64,000 nt of DNA. Origin: an uncultured Bacteroidota bacterium. Lineage in GTDB: Bacteria > Bacteroidota > Bacteroidia > 2-12-FULL-35-15. Under the pieces are notes generated by a model. It had not been told where the DNA came from, did not search any database, and worked only from the letters and a program-made list of their open reading frames with translations. Position 1 is the stretch's first letter, and every line of letters begins with the position of its first letter. The stretch covers positions 67,929-131,928 of the forward strand of contig CAINDA010000065.1 in NCBI GenBank assembly GCA_903847205.1, written 5' to 3'. Below are positions 1,819 through 34,563 of the stretch, in pieces. Position numbers and translations under genes: made by a program.

Positions 1819-3861
1819 TTAAAATAAATTATTCAATAAGCTGTCATCAACTAAATTTGGCAGTGTTACTTTTAAGTCAGGCTTGCGGGCCATTTCCCGC
1901 TTAATTGCAAATATCGCTCCATTATTGCGGGCCCAGCTTCTGCGGGCAATTCCGTTGTTCACATCCCAAAATAACATTGATTTTAATCTTCGGTCACTGT
2001 CAGCAGTACCGTCCAGCACCATACCAAAACCGCCGTTGATTACTTCGCCCCAGCCTACTCCTCCGCCGTTGTGCAGAGATACCCAGGTAGCTCCGCGGAA
2101 GCAGTCGCCTGCAAAATTCTGAACGGCCATATCGGCTGTATAGCTGGAACCATCATATATATTGGATGTTTCGCGGTAAGGAGAATCAGTGCCTGATACA
2201 TCATGGTGATCACGGCCAAGAACAATGGGAGCGGAAATTTTTCCTGCTTTAACCGCCTTGTTAAAAGCTTCTGCAATTTTTATCCGTCCTTCTGCATCAG
2301 CATATAAAATGCGGGCTTGCGAGCCTACTACCATTTTATTCTGCTGTGCTGCTTTTATCCAGCGGATGTTATCATCCAGCTGCTGCTTGATTTCATCGGG
2401 TGCAGTTTTACGTATTTTTTCAAGAACCTGAGCTGCAATTTTATCTGCGGCTTCCAGATCCTTCGGGTCGCAGGAAGTGCATACCCAGCGAAAAGGGCCG
2501 AAGCCGTAGTCAAAACACATAGGGCCAAGAATGTCTTGTACGTAGGATGGGTACTTGTATGTATTAGACCTGACAGGTTTCGAAAACCTGTCAGGTCTTT
2601 CCTCGGCAAAAATAGCAGCATTAGCTCTGCCCGCTTCTAACAGAAATGCATTACCATAATCAAAGAAATACATTCCTTTTTTAGTAAGCTGATTTATGGC
2701 ATTAACATGGCGCTGCAAAGTTTTCTGAACTTCTATTTTAAATTGTTCAGGATTTTCTGCCATCATTTTATTCGCATCTTCAAGCGAAATCCCCGCTGGA
2801 TAATAGCCTCCAGACCATGGATTGTGCAGTGATGTCTGGTCGGAACCTAAATCTATTTTTACATTTTCAGCAGCAAGTTTTTCCCAGAGGTCAACCACAT
2901 TGCCATGATAAGCCAATGATACAACCTCTTTTGAGAGGCGGGCTTTTTCAATCCGTACAATTAATTTATCCAGATTGTTATATATTTCATCCACCCAGCC
3001 CTGCGAATGGCGTATTTTAATTGCTTTAAGATTCACTTCTGCAATTACTCCTACAGCACCAGCGATAACTGCAGCCTTTGGCTGAGCGCCGCTCATCCCT
3101 CCCAAACCTGCACTCACAAATACTTTCCCGGCTAAGCCTTCTTTACCGCCTCCTGCAAATTTTCTGCCCGCATTCAGCAGCGTAATGGTTGTACCGTGAA
3201 CAATGCCCTGCGGACCGATGTACATAAATGAACCTGCGGTCATCTGCCCGTACTGCGTTACTCCGAGCGCATTAAATTTTTCTAAATCATCCGGTTTGCT
3301 GTAATTCGGTATCATCATTCCGTTTGTAATAACAACCCGGGGCGCATCTTTATGCGATGGAAATAAACCCATAGGATGCCCGGAATATAAGGCCAGTGTC
3401 TGTTCATCCGTCATCTCGGCCAGATATTTCATCGTTAATAAATACTGAGCCCAGTTCTGGAAAACTGAGCCGTTGCCGCCATATGTAATTAACTCATGAG
3501 GGTGCTGTGCTACTGCATTATCTAAATTATTCTGCAGCATCAGCATTATTGCTGCCGCCTGTTTCGACCGGTGCGGATAATCATTGATGGGTCGGGAATG
3601 AATGGCATAATCTGGTCGGAAGCGGTACATGTATATACGGCCGAATTTTTTTAATTCAGCTGCAAATTCTTTTGCCAAAACAACGTGATGTTTTTTATCG
3701 AAATAACGAAGCGCATTGCGGACAGCCAATTTTTTTTCCTCCGTTTTTAAAATATCTTTTCGCTTGGGTGCATGATTTAATACCGGGTCAAATGGCTTTA
3801 CAGGCGGTAATTCAGAAGGAATGCCTTTTAAAATTTGTTTTTTGAATTCTTTGTTCGTCAT
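1819..3861 (-). CDS. hutU: Urocanate hydratase (urocanase), long 680-aa form
   Basis: Conserved urocanase blocks are present: GGMSGAQPKA (NAD-binding), MCFDYGFGPFRWV, YIGPQGIVHGT and SLHNGGGVGWGEV. The six internal ORFs on both strands are antisense or out-of-frame artefacts. Confidence 0.85.
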   Translation of the reverse strand: MTNKEFKKQILKGIPSELPPVKPFDPVLNHAPKRKDILKTEEKKLAVRNALRYFDKKHHVVLAKEFAAELKKFGRIYMYRFRPDYAIHSRPINDYPHRSKQAAAIMLMLQNNLDNAVAQHPHELITYGGNGSVFQNWAQYLLTMKYLAEMTDEQTLALYSGHPMGLFPSHKDAPRVVITNGMMIPNYSKPDDLEKFNALGVTQYGQMTAGSFMYIGPQGIVHGTTITLLNAGRKFAGGGKEGLAGKVFVSAGLGGMSGAQPKAAVIAGAVGVIAEVNLKAIKIRHSQGWVDEIYNNLDKLIVRIEKARLSKEVVSLAYHGNVVDLWEKLAAENVKIDLGSDQTSLHNPWSGGYYPAGISLEDANKMMAENPEQFKIEVQKTLQRHVNAINQLTKKGMYFFDYGNAFLLEAGRANAAIFAEERPDRFSKPVRSNTYKYPSYVQDILGPMCFDYGFGPFRWVCTSCDPKDLEAADKIAAQVLEKIRKTAPDEIKQQLDDNIRWIKAAQQNKMVVGSQARILYADAEGRIKIAEAFNKAVKAGKISAPIVLGRDHHDVSGTDSPYRETSNIYDGSSYTADMAVQNFAGDCFRGATWVSLHNGGGVGWGEVINGGFGMVLDGTADSDRRLKSMLFWDVNNGIARRSWARNNGAIFAIKREMARKPDLKVTLPNLVDDSLLNNLF
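2566..2598. repeat. 33-bp palindromic element, copy A (in-frame inside hutU)
   Basis: AGACCTGACAGG-TTTCGAAAA-CCTGTCAGGTCT has 12-bp perfect inverted arms and a 9-nt spacer. It matches 30 of 33 positions of the copy at 31921-31953. On the hutU strand it encodes RPDRFSKPVRS in frame. Confidence 0.6.
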
Positions 3862-4012
3862 TTAATGGTTTATTAGTCGTTGAACATTGCTGGTAATCTT
3901 AATTTTGAAAATAGCGGAAGAATGCACCTGAAATTAAAAGCATCCCTCTCCCTGCAATGACTGAAAAATCCAGTGATTATTTTATTCCCGGTACTACATT
4001 GGTAAATCATTT

Positions 4013-4092
4013 CATCAGTACATAATCACATCGGCACATAAGTATATCAGTACATCACCACATCACCACATCAGCACATCCTCACATCATTT
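4013..4092. repeat. Degenerate octamer tandem repeat (CATCAGCA-like) x ~10
   Basis: The tract reads catcagta cataatca catcggca cataagta tatcagta catcacca catcacca catcagca catcctca catcattt. It lies between the hutU start and the 3' end of the small Cys-rich ORF. Confidence 0.4.
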
Positions 4093-4266
4093 TTTCTTAT
4101 CAATTCGCCCTTTAACTTTATTGAACCAATAAGGACAATGTTTGCAGCCATTCTGGCAGCAGTAACCCCGTTTGAGAAGATATTTTTCTGTAAATACAAT
4201 ATAGCCTTCCGGACTATAATAAAAATCGTCAGGCTCTAAATCTTTCCTTTGTGAAAATCCTTCCAT
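4087..4266 (-). CDS. Small cysteine-rich conserved hypothetical protein (59 aa, missed by the 60-aa ORF cutoff)
   Basis: Hand translation gives MEGFSQRKDLEPDDFYYSPEGYIVFTEKYLLKRGYCCQNGCKHCPYWFNKVKGRIDKKK with a CCxxGCxHC metal-binding-like motif. From memory it resembles a short DUF-type family common in Bacteroidota. Confidence 0.45.
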   Translation of the reverse strand: MEGFSQRKDLEPDDFYYSPEGYIVFTEKYLLKRGYCCQNGCKHCPYWFNKVKGRIDKKK

Positions 4267-4295
4267 TGGCTTGCAAAATTAAGTAATTTTACTGA

Positions 4296-5246
4296 ATGCC
4301 ATTTGAATCCGAAATTATTCCGCTGCAGGCTGTAAATGATGCTGTAACAAAGGCCCACGGCATTCGTTTGTTTGTGCTTCGTACGGATTTAAATCATCCC
4401 GATTTCAGCGGCAACAAGCTTTTTAAACTTAAATACAATCTGCTTGAAGCCCAAAAGCTGGGAAAAAAAACACTTCTTACTTTCGGCGGTGCATTTTCAA
4501 ATCACATTGCAGCAAGTGCCGCTGCAGGGAAAAAATATGGATTTAAAACCATTGGAATTATCCGGGGAGAAGAATACCCAGAGTTAAATCCAACACTGCA
4601 GTTTGCTAAACGCTGCAGGATGCGTCTGCATTATGTTTCACGTTCTCTATACCGCAATAAAACTGAGCTTTACGAATATGTCGAGCAGCAGTTTTCTGCG
4701 GAAAATTATTATCTGATTCCGGAAGGCGGTTCAAATGAGTTTGGTGTAACAGGCTGTAAAGAAATTACTGAACACATCAATATGGATTTTGATTATGTGT
4801 GCACCCCTTGCGGTACAGGCGCTACAATGGCCGGTATAGTTATGTCATTGAAGCAAAATCAAAATGCTGTCGGGTTCCAGATTTTAAAGGCCAAAGGTTA
4901 TATTCAAAAAGAAGTATCTCAATGGATAAATAAATTTGGTGAAAGCAGTGCAGCAGATTTAGATGATTCAGAAATGTTTTCTCCGGCAGGCAATTGGAAC
5001 ATCAATGAAAATTACCATTTCGGAGGATATGCAAAAGTAAACAAGGAGCTGGCAGTATTCATTAAGCAGTTTGAACTTGAGAACAATATACCGCTTGATT
5101 TCATATACACAGGAAAAATGATGTTCGGCATTTATGACTTAATAGGGAAAGGCTTTTTTAAAAAAGGTCGGACAATCATAGCAATCCATACAGGCGGTCT
5201 GCAGGGTAATTCAGGGTTTAGTTTTCGCAGCCTTATTCATGAATGA
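4296..5246 (+). CDS. PLP-dependent 1-aminocyclopropane-1-carboxylate deaminase / D-cysteine desulfhydrase family enzyme
   Basis: SGNKLFKLKYNL carries the PLP-lysine motif of the ACC-deaminase family (GGNKxRKLE-like). Downstream are GGAFSNHIAASAAAG and HTGGLQG. Length is 316 aa. Confidence 0.7.
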   Translation: MPFESEIIPLQAVNDAVTKAHGIRLFVLRTDLNHPDFSGNKLFKLKYNLLEAQKLGKKTLLTFGGAFSNHIAASAAAGKKYGFKTIGIIRGEEYPELNPTLQFAKRCRMRLHYVSRSLYRNKTELYEYVEQQFSAENYYLIPEGGSNEFGVTGCKEITEHINMDFDYVCTPCGTGATMAGIVMSLKQNQNAVGFQILKAKGYIQKEVSQWINKFGESSAADLDDSEMFSPAGNWNINENYHFGGYAKVNKELAVFIKQFELENNIPLDFIYTGKMMFGIYDLIGKGFFKKGRTIIAIHTGGLQGNSGFSFRSLIHE

Positions 5247-30395: not shown

Positions 30396-31877
30396 TTGGG
30401 AATTATAGAAAAGCAGGCAACCAAAAACTTAATATACTCTTATCTTGGAGCAGGGCTTGGTTTTGTTACTTTAATGTGGTCGTCGCATTTATTAAGTCCG
30501 GATGAAAACGGATTAACGCGCATTTTACTTTCAATCACAGCTCTCTTTTCTCAATTTGCAAGTTTAGGATTCAATGCAGTAACCTCTCGTTTTTTTCCTT
30601 ATTTTAGAAATAAAGAAAAAGGCCATCATGGCTACCTGTATTATGGCATCATCACCACTTTAGCCGGATTTACGCTATGTTACATTACATTCTATTTTTT
30701 CAAAGATCAAATAATTGCCGATAATCAACAAAAATCAAAGTTATTTGCCGACTATCTTTTTTACTTAATGCCTCTTACCTTCTTCACTTTATTTTTTGGT
30801 TTATTCGATTACTATTTAAGAGCCTGTTATAGATCAGTTATCGGCTCCTCTTCAAAAGATTTAACCCAGCGCATTTTAATTCTGGCAGTCCTATTTTTAT
30901 ATTTTTTAAAAATAATCAACTTTAACATTTTTGTTTTTTTATATGTTGCAGCAACTTGTATTCCTACTTTAATTCTTCTCTATTATATTGTAAAACTTGG
31001 CGAATGGCATGTAAAACCTGTTAGAGGATTTGTGAGCAAAGAGCTTAGAAAAGAAATGATAAACCTTAGTTTATATGCAATAATAATAGGTAGTTCCGGA
31101 ATTTTAATGTCGAGTATTGATGTAATAATGGTGAATCAAAAATTGGGCCTCAAACAAACTGGTATTTACGGCATTGCGTTTTATTTCGGCAGCATCATAA
31201 TTATTCCATCACGCTCATTACTGCGGATTGCGATGGGGATTGTTGCTGATGCATTTAAAAAAAATGATCTGGAAGAAATCAGCCGTTTGTATAAAAAATC
31301 CTGCAACAGCCAGCTGACAATCGGTTTATTACTTTTTATCGGAATATGGTGTAATATAAATAACATTATGGCTTTATTGCCTCCGGAATATGCAGGAGGT
31401 AAAAACGTAATACTGTTTATCAGTTTAGGCAATTTAATAGATATGGGAACCGGCTTTAATTACATCATAATGATGACTTCAAAACATTACAGGTTTGATG
31501 GAATATTTATGATCATTATTTTATTTTTAACAATATTTTTAAACTATCTTTTGATTCCCATCTACGGAATCACAGGATCAGCAATAGCAACAGCAACAAC
31601 CATTGCAGCTTATAATATTATGAGATGGCTGTTTTTACTTTTCAAATTTAAAATGCAGCCTTACGATTTAAATAATGTAAAAATTATTGTTATCGCCGCG
31701 ATAGCTTTTTTACCCGGGTATTTTATGCCGTACTTAAATTTTCTGGTGATTGATATAGCCGTGAGAAGCGGGATTGTAGGAGGATTATTTATTCTCTTAC
31801 TTTTAAAAACGGAAGCAGCCCCCGAAATAAATATCAAAATCAGAAAAAACCTGAAACGATTTTCAATTCATATTTAG
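30396..31877 (+). CDS. Wzx-like oligosaccharide flippase (MOP superfamily polysaccharide biosynthesis protein)
   Basis: A 493-aa protein with ~12-14 TM helices. GLTRILLSITALFSQFASLGFNAVTSRFFPYF is a Wzx-type N-terminal block. The predicted start is TTG. It is a clear paralog of the gene at 59764..61233. Confidence 0.65.
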   Translation: MGIIEKQATKNLIYSYLGAGLGFVTLMWSSHLLSPDENGLTRILLSITALFSQFASLGFNAVTSRFFPYFRNKEKGHHGYLYYGIITTLAGFTLCYITFYFFKDQIIADNQQKSKLFADYLFYLMPLTFFTLFFGLFDYYLRACYRSVIGSSSKDLTQRILILAVLFLYFLKIINFNIFVFLYVAATCIPTLILLYYIVKLGEWHVKPVRGFVSKELRKEMINLSLYAIIIGSSGILMSSIDVIMVNQKLGLKQTGIYGIAFYFGSIIIIPSRSLLRIAMGIVADAFKKNDLEEISRLYKKSCNSQLTIGLLLFIGIWCNINNIMALLPPEYAGGKNVILFISLGNLIDMGTGFNYIIMMTSKHYRFDGIFMIIILFLTIFLNYLLIPIYGITGSAIATATTIAAYNIMRWLFLLFKFKMQPYDLNNVKIIVIAAIAFLPGYFMPYLNFLVIDIAVRSGIVGGLFILLLLKTEAAPEINIKIRKNLKRFSIHI

Positions 31878-31920: not shown

Positions 31921-31953
31921 AGACCTGACAGGTTTTAAAAACCTATCAGGTCT
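31921..31953. repeat. 33-bp palindromic element, copy B (intergenic, likely bidirectional terminator)
   Basis: AGACCTGACAGG-TTTTAAAAA-CCTATCAGGTCT has the same arms and spacer length as the copy at 2566-2598. It lies between the convergent flippase (+) and YfhO-like (-) genes and is flanked by A and T runs. Confidence 0.6.
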
Positions 31954-32040: not shown

Positions 32041-34563
32041 CTATTGTTCTTTTTTTCTAAATGAAAGAAAAATCGAAGCCCCTGCAGCCAAAAACAATAA
32101 AATACAAGAGGCCAGTGAAATTTTTTCTCCAAGGAAATATTTTTTGGGCTCAAATTTGAATTCAATCTGATGCTTCCCTGCCGGAATGCGCATTGCACGC
32201 AATACATAGTCGGCTCCAAAGTGAGGTTTTGCAACACCGTCAATGTAAGCATCCCAGCCTTTATTATAGTAGATTTCAGAAAAAACTGCCAGTTGCTCAG
32301 TACCCGCATTTGATTCGTATTTAAGGTCATTAGGTTTACATTCCAGTAGTTTAATGGAAGCAGAACCGTCTGGTTTTGGAGAGAAGCCATCCAGTTCATT
32401 GTGGTATCGTTCATCAACAACTGCAGTATTTCCAGGGTTTACCTCTCCTATTGTTTTAATTTCTTCGTCCGCATTTTTAACAACTTTCACTTCCTTAACA
32501 AACCAGGCATTTCCCAGTGCATAACGGTTCTGCAGAGGAGATGCATCCGGATTGTAAATAATATAACGTGCGTTCAGCATATTCAATACCCCCTGCTTTG
32601 CAAAAACAGCCCGTAACGACGAATCATTTGGGTTTGATTTCAGTGTTGTCATTATATCCTGAATACTATTTTGAATATGCATATCTATCAAATCCTGGTA
32701 CCGTCTCAATTTTGCTGCATGGTAGCCGCCAATTGATTTATGATAATACGATGTACCTGATTCATTAAAAGTATTTACAGCAATATTCAACACACGGTAA
32801 TCCGGATCTTTGTCCTCTAAAATTTCCTGACTGGCTTTTGTTAAAGGAAAAGGAACAGCTGCCTCTTGTTTTGTTTTAAAATTTTTATCATTTACATATC
32901 CTTTATCAATCTGAACTAAATCAACAAAAATTAACAATCCTAAAACTACAGTCAAAATAGTTTTATTAATTATTGATTTAAAAAACAGCCAGATCGCGCC
33001 AGCGGCAAGCGTTATAAAAATAAAACTTCGCAATGCATCTGATTTAAATAATGTAATACGGGCAATTTCAACATTGTCAATAAATTTTTGAGCAATTACT
33101 GCACCGTTGCTCTTTAAAATCTGATTGTACATTTTATCATACTCGCCGTCGCCGAAAAATGTGGTTAAGCCCGGCATAATGTAATAAATCAATGACAAGC
33201 CGCCAGTTATTGCGAATGAAATAAAGAAAGCATTTTGAACACTTATTTCCTTTTTGATAAAAGCAATTTTGATTTTATGTTTAAAAAAATCAGGGTTCTT
33301 TAATATTTTATTTATTGCCAATATCGCCAAAAGCGGAATTGTAAATTCTGCCACTACCAATATCATAGAAACTGCTCTGAATTTATTATAAGCAGGAAAG
33401 TGATCTAAAAAAAATTCTGTCAAAGGCATAAAATTTTTGCCCCACGACATCATCAGCGAAAACAGCGTACCAGTTAACAGCACCCATTTCATCCGCCCCT
33501 CAACAATAAATAATCCGAAAACAAATAAAAATATAATAATGGCTCCTGCGTAAGGCGACATAGTAAACGGCTGATCGCCCCAATATTGCGACATGCCTCC
33601 GATACTTTCACGCATATCAGGATCAACATTTTTCAAGGCGCTTTTATTTTCACCTACACTTATTGATGAAGACCGCCCTTTAAAACCCGGAATCATCAGT
33701 GTCATCGTTTCAGAAACACCCATGCTCCATTGTGTTGCATAATCTTTATCCAAACCAGACGTTTTATTTCCTTTATCAGACGACAATTCAGAAGCACCTC
33801 GTATTGTTACTGAAGCGTAATCAGCAGTGTTCCATAAATTACTGATATTGCATCCAATAGCCAAAACACCCGCAATGGCGAATATGCCGATACTTTTTAA
33901 AATTGCTTTATACTCTTTTTGTTTAATGCGCGCCACCCATTCAAATGCTATATAAATACCTAAAAACAAAAACAAATAATAAGTTATCTGAACGTGATTC
34001 CAATATAATTCCATTCCTAAAAAAAGCGCTGTAAGCGCGCCTCCAAGCAGATATTTACCTCTGTTAACAAGTATAACCCCCGCAAATACCAATGGCATGT
34101 ATGCAATAGCAAATGCTTTTGTAATATGCCCGGCATCAATTATTATAAAGAAATATGCAGAAAATGCAAACGCCACGGCCCCGAGAATACTAAGCCATGG
34201 ATCAATCTTAAGCACAAGCAGCAGAATAAAGAAACCTAATAAATAAGAAAAAACAATATTGGCCGGAAAAGGAAGCCACAATGTAGAAACGCCGCGAAAA
34301 TACAACAGCAGATTATCCGGATGCCGAATTGATATTTGATATGCAGGCATACCCCCGAACATTGAATTTGTCCATAAAGGTTCTTCATGATACTGATCTC
34401 TGAAATCATTTGATTCTTTTGCCATTCCGGCGCTTGAAACCATATCGCTCTGTATAATTACTTTCCCTTTTAATACAGGTGTAAAATATCCTAGAGTCAA
34501 AACAATAAAAATTACTATTGCTGCAATAATCGGAACAAGTGCTTTAAGATTGATATTTTTCAT
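32041..34563 (-). CDS. Large polytopic membrane protein, YfhO-like (putative glycan/lipid glycosyltransferase family)
   Basis: 840 aa with ~14 TM helices in the N-terminal two-thirds and a soluble C-terminal domain plus a final TM. The overall architecture and N-terminus (MKNINLKALVPIIAAIV...) resemble the YfhO family. No motif-level confirmation. Confidence 0.45.
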   Translation of the reverse strand: MKNINLKALVPIIAAIVIFIVLTLGYFTPVLKGKVIIQSDMVSSAGMAKESNDFRDQYHEEPLWTNSMFGGMPAYQISIRHPDNLLLYFRGVSTLWLPFPANIVFSYLLGFFILLLVLKIDPWLSILGAVAFAFSAYFFIIIDAGHITKAFAIAYMPLVFAGVILVNRGKYLLGGALTALFLGMELYWNHVQITYYLFLFLGIYIAFEWVARIKQKEYKAILKSIGIFAIAGVLAIGCNISNLWNTADYASVTIRGASELSSDKGNKTSGLDKDYATQWSMGVSETMTLMIPGFKGRSSSISVGENKSALKNVDPDMRESIGGMSQYWGDQPFTMSPYAGAIIIFLFVFGLFIVEGRMKWVLLTGTLFSLMMSWGKNFMPLTEFFLDHFPAYNKFRAVSMILVVAEFTIPLLAILAINKILKNPDFFKHKIKIAFIKKEISVQNAFFISFAITGGLSLIYYIMPGLTTFFGDGEYDKMYNQILKSNGAVIAQKFIDNVEIARITLFKSDALRSFIFITLAAGAIWLFFKSIINKTILTVVLGLLIFVDLVQIDKGYVNDKNFKTKQEAAVPFPLTKASQEILEDKDPDYRVLNIAVNTFNESGTSYYHKSIGGYHAAKLRRYQDLIDMHIQNSIQDIMTTLKSNPNDSSLRAVFAKQGVLNMLNARYIIYNPDASPLQNRYALGNAWFVKEVKVVKNADEEIKTIGEVNPGNTAVVDERYHNELDGFSPKPDGSASIKLLECKPNDLKYESNAGTEQLAVFSEIYYNKGWDAYIDGVAKPHFGADYVLRAMRIPAGKHQIEFKFEPKKYFLGEKISLASCILLFLAAGASIFLSFRKKEQ

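Follow-up and report, generated by a model that had tools for sequence, protein, structure and literature searches.

A 33-bp palindrome in frame within a Bacteroidota urocanase gene is probably a REP of a family with a cognate RAYT transposase

Results

A perfect 33-bp palindrome occurs twice in the window

A stretch of 64,000 nucleotides from an uncultured Bacteroidota bacterium (contig CAINDA010000065.1, positions 67,929 to 131,928), hereafter referred to as the 64-kb window, was analyzed for a short palindromic element that lies in frame within hutU, the gene for urocanate hydratase (urocanase), and recurs at an intergenic position. The gene and the two copies of the element are as follows.

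1819..3861, minus strand: hutU, long-type urocanate hydratase of 680 aa, intact, with the family-invariant residues conserved
2566..2598, minus strand: copy 1, a perfect 33-bp palindrome in frame in hutU, read as RPDRFSKPVRS (residues 422-432)
31921..31953, minus strand: copy 2, intergenic, flanked by convergent genes

The sequence of copy 1 is AGACCTGACAGGTTTCGAAAACCTGTCAGGTCT, matching the consensus of the repeat family described below, and that of copy 2 is AGACCTGACAGGTTTTAAAAACCTATCAGGTCT. The two copies are identical at 30 of 33 positions, in agreement with the original prediction; of the three mismatches, two fall within the loop and the third within an arm. The same prediction described arms of 12 bp with a spacer of 9 nt, but the arms turned out to be 15 bp in length and the loop 3 nt, the TTT and AAA triplets pairing as well. 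A search of the window with up to 3 mismatches allowed detected these two sites only, and the hairpin pattern gave no match in 100 dinucleotide-preserving shuffles of the window. Copy 1 folds on either strand with about -25 kcal/mol (z about -6.5). The Rfam search of five hairpin loci in E-value mode yielded only spurious microRNA-type matches far under the gathering scores, and therefore the hairpin stands outside the curated RNA families.

Translation of the 680-aa open reading frame (ORF) agreed with the claim that copy 1 makes up 11 codons read as RPDRFSKPVRS. On either strand the 33-bp element carries a stop codon (TGA) in one of the three frames only; with two open frames left on each strand, long overlapping ORFs arise at the element. 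The long antisense ORFs that were previously pointed out do exist, but only as by-products with no sign of coding.

2317..2640, plus strand: antisense-type ORF of 107 aa
2355..2621, minus strand: antisense-type ORF of 88 aa

The palindrome is a clean insertion in hutU

The hutU product matched the structures 6uek (residues 8-676, E=3.6e-263) and 1uwl (E=1.5e-100) in PDB, and contained three Pfam urocanase domains, PF17391 (Urocanase_N), PF01175 (Urocanase), and PF17392 (Urocanase_C). It was aligned with 120 orthologs of 76-100% identity, all from Bacteroidota wherever the source was named. The nearest orthologs, P0002 and P0005 (87% identity), are 669 aa in length, 11 residues shorter than HutU of the window. 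The 11 residues were indeed lineage-specific, as first suggested, because 83 of the 120 orthologs, including P0002 and P0005, have the short loop KPD-GKFKYPSY without insert, and the window hutU minus 33 bp gives the same loop length as these insert-free orthologs. At the DNA level, the window hutU has exactly 33 bp more than L123, an ortholog with an empty site, and these lie between a GAA and an AAT codon; in this comparison no target-site duplication was detected, and no flanking base was repeated. Since the nearest orthologs are short by exactly 11 codons, the insertion is a clean one.

Internal length variation among the 120 orthologs was found at two places only, residues ~236-243 and ~421. 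Inserts of 1 to 31 residues are present at site ~421 in 37 of the 120 orthologs, and it is also here that HMMER introduced gaps when the protein was aligned to the urocanase structures of T. cruzi and P. putida. The tolerance of the in-frame insertion, as originally supposed, agrees with its location at one of the only two indel-tolerant positions of HutU. Because length variation is confined to two sites and the HMMER gaps coincide with one of them, site ~421 appears to behave as a permissive loop.

One may ask if the palindrome is instead ancestral, or locally made (for instance by template switching), its likeness to copy 2 being coincidental. In the urocanase of T. cruzi, PD..VRS is present in this loop too, possibly as an old peptide motif, and the inserted peptide is partly common to the orthologs P0003 and P0083. 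In these two orthologs, however, the peptide is encoded by the same palindromic DNA and not by divergent DNA as expected of a segment conserved at the protein level. An ancestral or local origin is extremely improbable, given the 83 orthologs without insert, the nearest ones being short by exactly 11 codons, the chance expectation of 0 in the shuffles, and the presence of the same 33-mer in unrelated intergenic contexts of three phyla and around genes for a REP-associated tyrosine transposase (RAYT; REP, repetitive extragenic palindrome) as described below. [quoted passage not shown]

The palindrome belongs to a dispersed repeat family

One genome per species was scanned with the pattern ACCTGAYAGG-N5-13-CCTRTCAGGT. 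All the figures given for the family refer to the matches listed, at least 135 copies in at least 120 loci, and do not represent a census. The dispersed repeat family assumed in the original prediction was thus found in other genomes. By record title, 41 loci belong to Bacteroidota, broadly defined, with isolates of Flavobacterium, Cyclobacterium, Larkinella, and Gelidibacter among them, 52 to Chloroflexota, where some contigs are as long as 3.1 and 5.2 Mb, 25 to Gammaproteobacteria, mostly Beggiatoaceae and Thiotrichaceae, the giant sulfur bacteria, and two to Betaproteobacteria. A sequencing adapter or assembly artefact is ruled out, since the element is found in isolate genomes and in contigs of Mb size, and since four recorded contigs encode the HutU protein.

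Since the core is fixed by the scan pattern, the informative positions are those outside the core. Among the 135 copies listed, the first pair outside the core covaries (G-C 69, A-T 42, C-G 13, T-A 3), the second outer pair is A-T in 121, and one base further out the pairing falls to 31%, the chance level. Toward the loop, the second inner pair also covaries (T-A 99, C-G 26), and the spacer is 9 nt in 101 copies. The consensus unit is A-R-ACCTGACAGG-T-Y-T-(3-4 nt)-A-R-A-CCTGTCAGGT-Y-T, three quarters of the copies being 33 nt long, and the hutU copy represents one full consensus unit. With arm cores of 11 bp that are conserved, and stem pairs that covary on the outer as well as the inner side, the element makes up a discrete unit of 33 nt. 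A core site of a tyrosine recombinase, with two 11-bp arms and a 7-bp centre, was also considered and is ruled out, as inner and outer pairs covary and the copies bracket a gene of the HUH type.

The flanks of the 135 copies, including the loop-oriented ones, showed no consensus and no direct repeats; the only signal was that G is weakly depleted at -1 and C at +1. These flanks bear on whether the element is a minimal MITE moved by a DDE transposase through terminal inverted repeats, as its perfect inverted arms and dispersed multi-copy distribution could suggest. Target-site duplication, however, is absent at hutU and at the 135 other copies, all with unrelated flanks, the bases adjoining the element pair in the inverted sense and not as direct repeats, the length of 33 bp is far under the MITE size (70-300 bp), and the gene bracketed by the copies encodes an HUH/Y1 enzyme, not a DDE enzyme. 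A MITE is therefore highly improbable, and of the two names initially offered for the element, that of REP is retained owing to the link to a RAYT, whereas that of MITE is not.

By a crude ORF rule, the 135 copies were classified into tandem (46), convergent (24), and divergent (5) intergenic contexts, 15 being inside ORFs and 45 undetermined. The copies show an extragenic, downstream-of-gene preference as REPs do, with convergent and tandem contexts in excess of divergent ones. In-frame copies were found in the genes for MutL (L019), MetH (L071), an amidohydrolase (L105), the R subunit of a type I restriction enzyme (L029), and a WD40-caspase protein (L042). Both open frames are used by the in-gene copies, giving RPDRxxxPVRS and DLTGxxNLSGL.

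Several arrangements of the copies were observed besides. Tandem arrays, in which the 33-bp REP and an identical ~20-bp linker are repeated head to tail, are present in a metagenome-assembled genome (MAG) of Thiomargarita (L049:2529-2954; six copies, of which five recur every 50 bp) and at L054:3012-3132, L013:5432-5500, and L115:1-100. A reading of the 50-bp arrays of L049 as being like CRISPR or a type III antitoxin was rejected, as the 'spacers' are identical and the arrays are plain tandem duplications. At L059:3178-3230, L081:773-826, L078:836-884, and L035:4998-5048, the REP is centred exactly within a longer palindrome, likewise perfect, that adds 8-11 pairs, and such copies look as if inserted into the apex of a pre-existing hairpin or terminator. 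Four or more extra pairs surround the REP in seven of the 135 copies, against 1.1 expected from flank shuffles.

The MetH protein with an in-frame 33-bp REP consists of 1391 aa (L071:58-4230, plus strand; uncultured Anaerolinea MAG, CAYQOF010000013.1). It also includes several peptides of a G-rich palindrome family (see below) and, between two of these, a full endonuclease-like domain of the DUF559 type (residues 750-857; Pfam E=2.7e-31), with the pterin-binding domain on one side and the B12-binding domain on the other. The repeats that accompany DUF559 genes may be these G-rich palindromes.

The hairpin brackets RAYT genes

In Flavobacterium paronense (L005), a gene of 193 aa has the hairpin on both sides; the gene is bracketed likewise in L004 and L119, and the hairpin adjoins it in L096 and L008. 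The L005 protein carries the motifs NHFH and YIHNNP. When a profile of six RAYT members was used, the sole match among solved structures was E. coli TnpA_REP (4ER8), which was aligned through both motifs. By its motifs, its length close to ~194 aa, and its homology to TnpA_REP, the associated enzyme fits TnpA_REP subclass 2.4.

As an independent test, metagenome contigs were searched by the RAYT protein profile only and the best 80 loci were taken; a hairpin was called with up to 2 mismatches per arm, and the flank was defined as within 250 bp. The hairpin was present at 35 of these best 80 RAYT loci, upstream of the gene in 26, downstream in 23, and on both sides in 18. It was also located inside the RAYT gene, ~200 nt from the start, at 18 of the 80. 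Most of the hairpin-negative loci are bracketed by sister 33-bp hairpins with other cores, such as ACCTTCAAGGT, ACCCCGAAGGT, and AACCCTTCCAGAGTT, and this is the pattern expected under co-evolution of enzyme and repeat. The GC content of the hairpin-positive loci ranges from 0.28 to 0.66, indicating that the enzyme-repeat pair, and not the repeat alone, is present in very different hosts.

REPs are also found within RAYT genes. In L004, a third REP copy lies in frame at 1437-1465 and is read as LHLTGFQNLSGVE, and the RAYT genes of L001 and L029 include REP remnants or a sister REP. The RAYT of L029, from an Anaerolineales MAG (3881-4486, minus strand; 33% identity), has, between its HuH motif and its Y motif, the peptide TSEVFKTSEV, which is a translated sister REP with the core ACCTCAGAGGT; the same genome has a REP with the core ACCTGACAGGT inside the type I restriction enzyme gene.

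The hutU loop has received inserts repeatedly

The ortholog P0003 (L121; 86% identity) carries the same element at the same point of hutU, with two outer pairs decayed. In L122 (P0083; 79% identity, distant clade), a different perfect variant, AAACCTGACAGGGTTTCAAACCCTGTCAGGTTT, is located at the same hutU loop; at least one further independent insertion must therefore have taken place. In the window gene (P0001) and in P0003 the REP lies at one and the same point, and both have derived flanks, E|REP|N-x-Y in place of the D|G-K-F of empty sites; the two formed an exclusive clade in only one of 200 bootstrap replicates. Within the REP, 10 of the 11 third-codon positions are identical between the window and L121, as compared with 55% gene-wide (binomial P ~0.014). 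The pattern of the window and P0003 could reflect recent gains in each, a single gain followed by precise loss elsewhere, recombination, or a constraint acting on the DNA.

Recombination would imply that the REP reached hutU of the window and of P0003 by homologous exchange of a short hutU segment between lineages, which would explain why two genes that are not exclusive sisters share the insertion point and its derived flanks. The first insertion would still need to be explained, however, the same pattern is explained by precise excision from the empty lineages (the 'peel and paste' of HUH enzymes), and the different variant in the distant clade of L122 calls for a further independent insertion. 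This explanation is very unlikely.

Selection at the level of nucleic acid is the other process to be weighed here: the hutU hairpin might have begun as a REP and be kept at present as an mRNA structure or a DNA site tuning the expression or stability of hutU. The window copy is still a perfect palindrome with a 15-bp stem, third-codon positions within the REP are nearly all identical between the window and L121, and hairpin-forming inserts are present in the same loop in many lineages. Recent or independent insertion, or homogenization by other copies, is expected to leave the same pattern, however; two outer pairs are already lost in L121, most of the close orthologs lack any insert, and the sense strand, on which no U tract follows the hutU copy, is not terminator-like. 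Such selection is considered unlikely, and the hutU copy is more probably a passenger.

Inserts of other kinds were observed at the same hutU site. A second, unrelated family of G-rich palindromes, CCCCTCTCC-n4-GGAGAGGGG-CAGGGGGTGAGG, is present in many Bacteroidota orthologs, as in the hutU loops of L124:450-2480, L126:63-2123, and L127:735-2762, and is read as peptides such as LPSPDGEGQGVR and SPLGGEAGRG; in the hutU loop of L125:903-2993, one G-rich palindrome is nested in the loop of another. The near-identical orthologs P0006 to P0015 differ by the presence of the G-rich palindrome, and no copy of this family was found in the 64-kb window. In L128:5001-7178 (hutU of P0106), the same site holds a longer insert of 31 residues, AT-rich, Lys/Asn-rich, and without palindrome, and an additional insert is present in the second loop. 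This second indel-tolerant loop of HutU (~236-243; ~3133-3156 of the window, minus strand) carries G-rich palindrome-type peptides, NNTPSPEGKTGEG, KNAPSPGGRAGEG, and NPSPSLAGRVGEG, in P0028, P0029, P0036, P0040, P0045, P0046, P0083, P0111, and P0115, and the window protein has its short form.

The simplest reading of the recurrent inserts in the hutU loop is frequent insertion filtered by selection. At the empty hutU site of L123, only a weak 5-bp stem was found beside the site, and thus targeting by a hairpin is not supported there.

The intergenic copy as a putative terminator

Copy 2 is located between two genes for membrane proteins.

30396..31877, plus strand: membrane-protein ORF of 493 aa, converging on copy 2 from the opposite side
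32041..34563, minus strand: membrane-protein ORF of 840 aa, its 3' end 88 bp upstream of copy 2 in the direction of transcription

When copy 2 is read on the minus strand, all 15 pairs form (-22.5 kcal/mol), the single arm mismatch being accommodated as a G-U pair, and the 15-pair stem is followed by TTTTTT, a terminator-like arrangement by pattern match. On the basis of this T6 tract and the G-U pair on the minus strand, copy 2 is probably a terminator or 3' hairpin of the 840-aa gene, a role that has been suggested for REPs at large, and the context counts among the matches listed (24 convergent versus five divergent) agree with such a role.

Discussion

With its scar-free insertion of 33 bp, its anatomy, and its RAYT association, the palindrome in hutU is very probably a REP of a family that has its own cognate RAYT, a single-domain HUH/Y1 transposase of TnpA_REP subclass 2.4 (Group 4 in the nomenclature of Bertels). 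Given the homology of the enzyme to TnpA_REP and the IS200/IS605 transposases, a RAYT encoded elsewhere in the genome would bind the hairpin folded from single-stranded DNA, and would in trans cut and rejoin DNA in the manner of IS200/IS605 transposases, so that insertion and excision could take place without duplication or scar. Insertions into coding sequence would survive when the frame stays open and the protein accepts 11 extra residues, as a unit of 11 codons with two of its three frames open on each strand would allow, and HutU offers two such places. The hutU copy would then be a translated passenger that extends a loop by 11 residues, while the intergenic copy at 31921-31953 may double as a terminator or 3' stabilizing hairpin of the minus-strand gene upstream.

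Several observations weigh against this interpretation. No homolog of RAYT was found in the 64-kb window. The matches of the proposed RAYT stay below the cut-off both for NCBIfam REP_Tyr_transpos (E=1e-14, 54.6 bits against a curated cut-off of 80) and for Pfam Y1_Tnp, which is weak (17.9 bits against 23). Some of the RAYT genes beside hairpins are pseudogenes with one in-frame stop each (L119:4974-5516 and L004:1211-1825), and that at L008:4120-4266 is truncated after ~50 codons. The flank profiles of the 135 copies listed showed no GTAG/CGTC foot, which is needed by E. coli TnpA_REP. The AlphaFold2 model of the window HutU (42 close orthologs) reached a mean predicted local distance difference test (pLDDT) score of 64.7, too low to show whether the insert is exposed at the surface; residues 422-431 of the insert scored <50 pLDDT, but so did many core segments. 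To our knowledge, the movement of a REP by a RAYT in vivo is not documented, and we know of no experiment on subclass 2.4.

A wider proposal, which is tentative and rather doubtful at present, is that the 33-bp REPs of subclass 2.4 are built for coding DNA as well, that their insertion is targeted, for example to hairpin apexes, and that RAYT and REP move between phyla as a unit. The fitness for coding DNA is suggested because a length of 11 codons is kept throughout the superfamily while the cores differ, two frames on each strand being free of stops, and homing to apexes because seven of the 135 copies listed are centred in a longer palindrome against 1.1 expected. If this proposal is true, the repeated hits on the hutU loop, by two REP variants and the G-rich family, would reflect targeting as well as selection, and the near-identical arm core in three phyla would mark a RAYT/REP unit moving between phyla.

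The hutU gene provides a living example of selfish hairpin DNA within an enzyme that is left unbroken, in a free-living member of Bacteroidota rather than in Rickettsia. Its loop is a natural experiment, with near-identical orthologs that have or lack the hairpin and three kinds of insert at one site. Such sites may be used for timing REP activity, for testing precise excision by RAYTs, and for finding permissive loops for protein engineering. The element also offers a defined substrate for the biochemistry of subclass 2.4 RAYTs, and in genome annotation it explains odd peptides that recur in predicted proteins, such as RPDRFxKPVRS, DLTGFxNLSGL, and TSEVFKTSEV. One 11-bp arm core retained from GC-poor Flavobacterium to GC-rich Chloroflexota contradicts the usual picture of REPs as lineage-specific.

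Comparison with known systems

The REPs of E. coli are imperfect and bulged, and need a 5' GTAG for cleavage (4ER8, PMC3479197). The system described here is like that of E. coli REP and TnpA_REP in the homologous enzyme fold, the catalytic motifs, and the hairpin DNA as a substrate, but is different with respect to the element, which is a perfect 15-bp stem without conserved flank. Di Nocera et al. (2013, PMC3733652) identified REPs of the GTAG/CGTC type within genes, of which many serve in DNA repair. The present element is likewise found in frame in functional genes, including one for DNA repair (MutL, L019), with ~11 to 30 residues added; it differs in being another sequence family without the tag, in its occurrence as single units rather than dimers, and in the repeated hits on one enzyme loop across lineages.

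Palindromic DNA in frame in coding genes, and translated there, is shared with the Rickettsia palindromic elements (RPEs), although the element here is only 33 bp and is present in several phyla. Ogata et al. are said to have described the RPEs in 2000 and 2002 as selfish palindromes in frame in genes, translated as an extra surface segment, and RPE-1 reportedly measures ~100-150 bp and is confined to Rickettsia. We know of no RAYT flanking RPE-1. In heterocystous cyanobacteria, mobile repeats of 21-27 nt, reportedly described by Elhai et al. in 2008, are said to be intergenic as well as inside conserved genes, with nested insertions, and to have no established link to a transposase. Tiny size, mobility, intergenic and intragenic location, and nesting are thus common to these small dispersed repeats and the present element, whereas sequence and lineage are different.

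The closest relationship is with the REP/RAYT systems of TnpA_REP subclass 2.4 (Quentin et al. 2018, PMC6006769), which corresponds to RAYT Group 4 (Bertels et al. 2017, PMC5581495). Enzymes of this subclass are characterized by the motifs NH[IFV]H and YIxNNP and a mean length of 194 aa, are abundant in Cyanobacteria and Bacteroidetes and scattered elsewhere, and are unique in having in-frame REPs inside tnpAREP between the two motifs, while their REPs are described with a GT[AG]G foot or a 'double foot' and three G-C pairs at the stem base (PMC6006769). The present family agrees with this subclass in hairpins that bracket a single-domain HUH/Y1 gene of the same motifs and length, in the distribution over Bacteroidetes and scattered phyla, in the location of copies mainly downstream of genes, and in the in-frame REPs inside the RAYT gene. 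It is different in that the element is fully symmetric, lacking GT[AG]G or 'double foot' and the three basal G-C pairs, and in that one 11-bp arm core is kept in three phyla with hosts of GC 0.28 to 0.66. Four 12-mers of the element had no relevant match in the full-text literature, nor did its core in the supplementary material of the two principal surveys of REPs. In-frame REPs in genes have already been published, and as far as the literature was searched, what is new here is a symmetric REP sequence family and its conservation across phyla.

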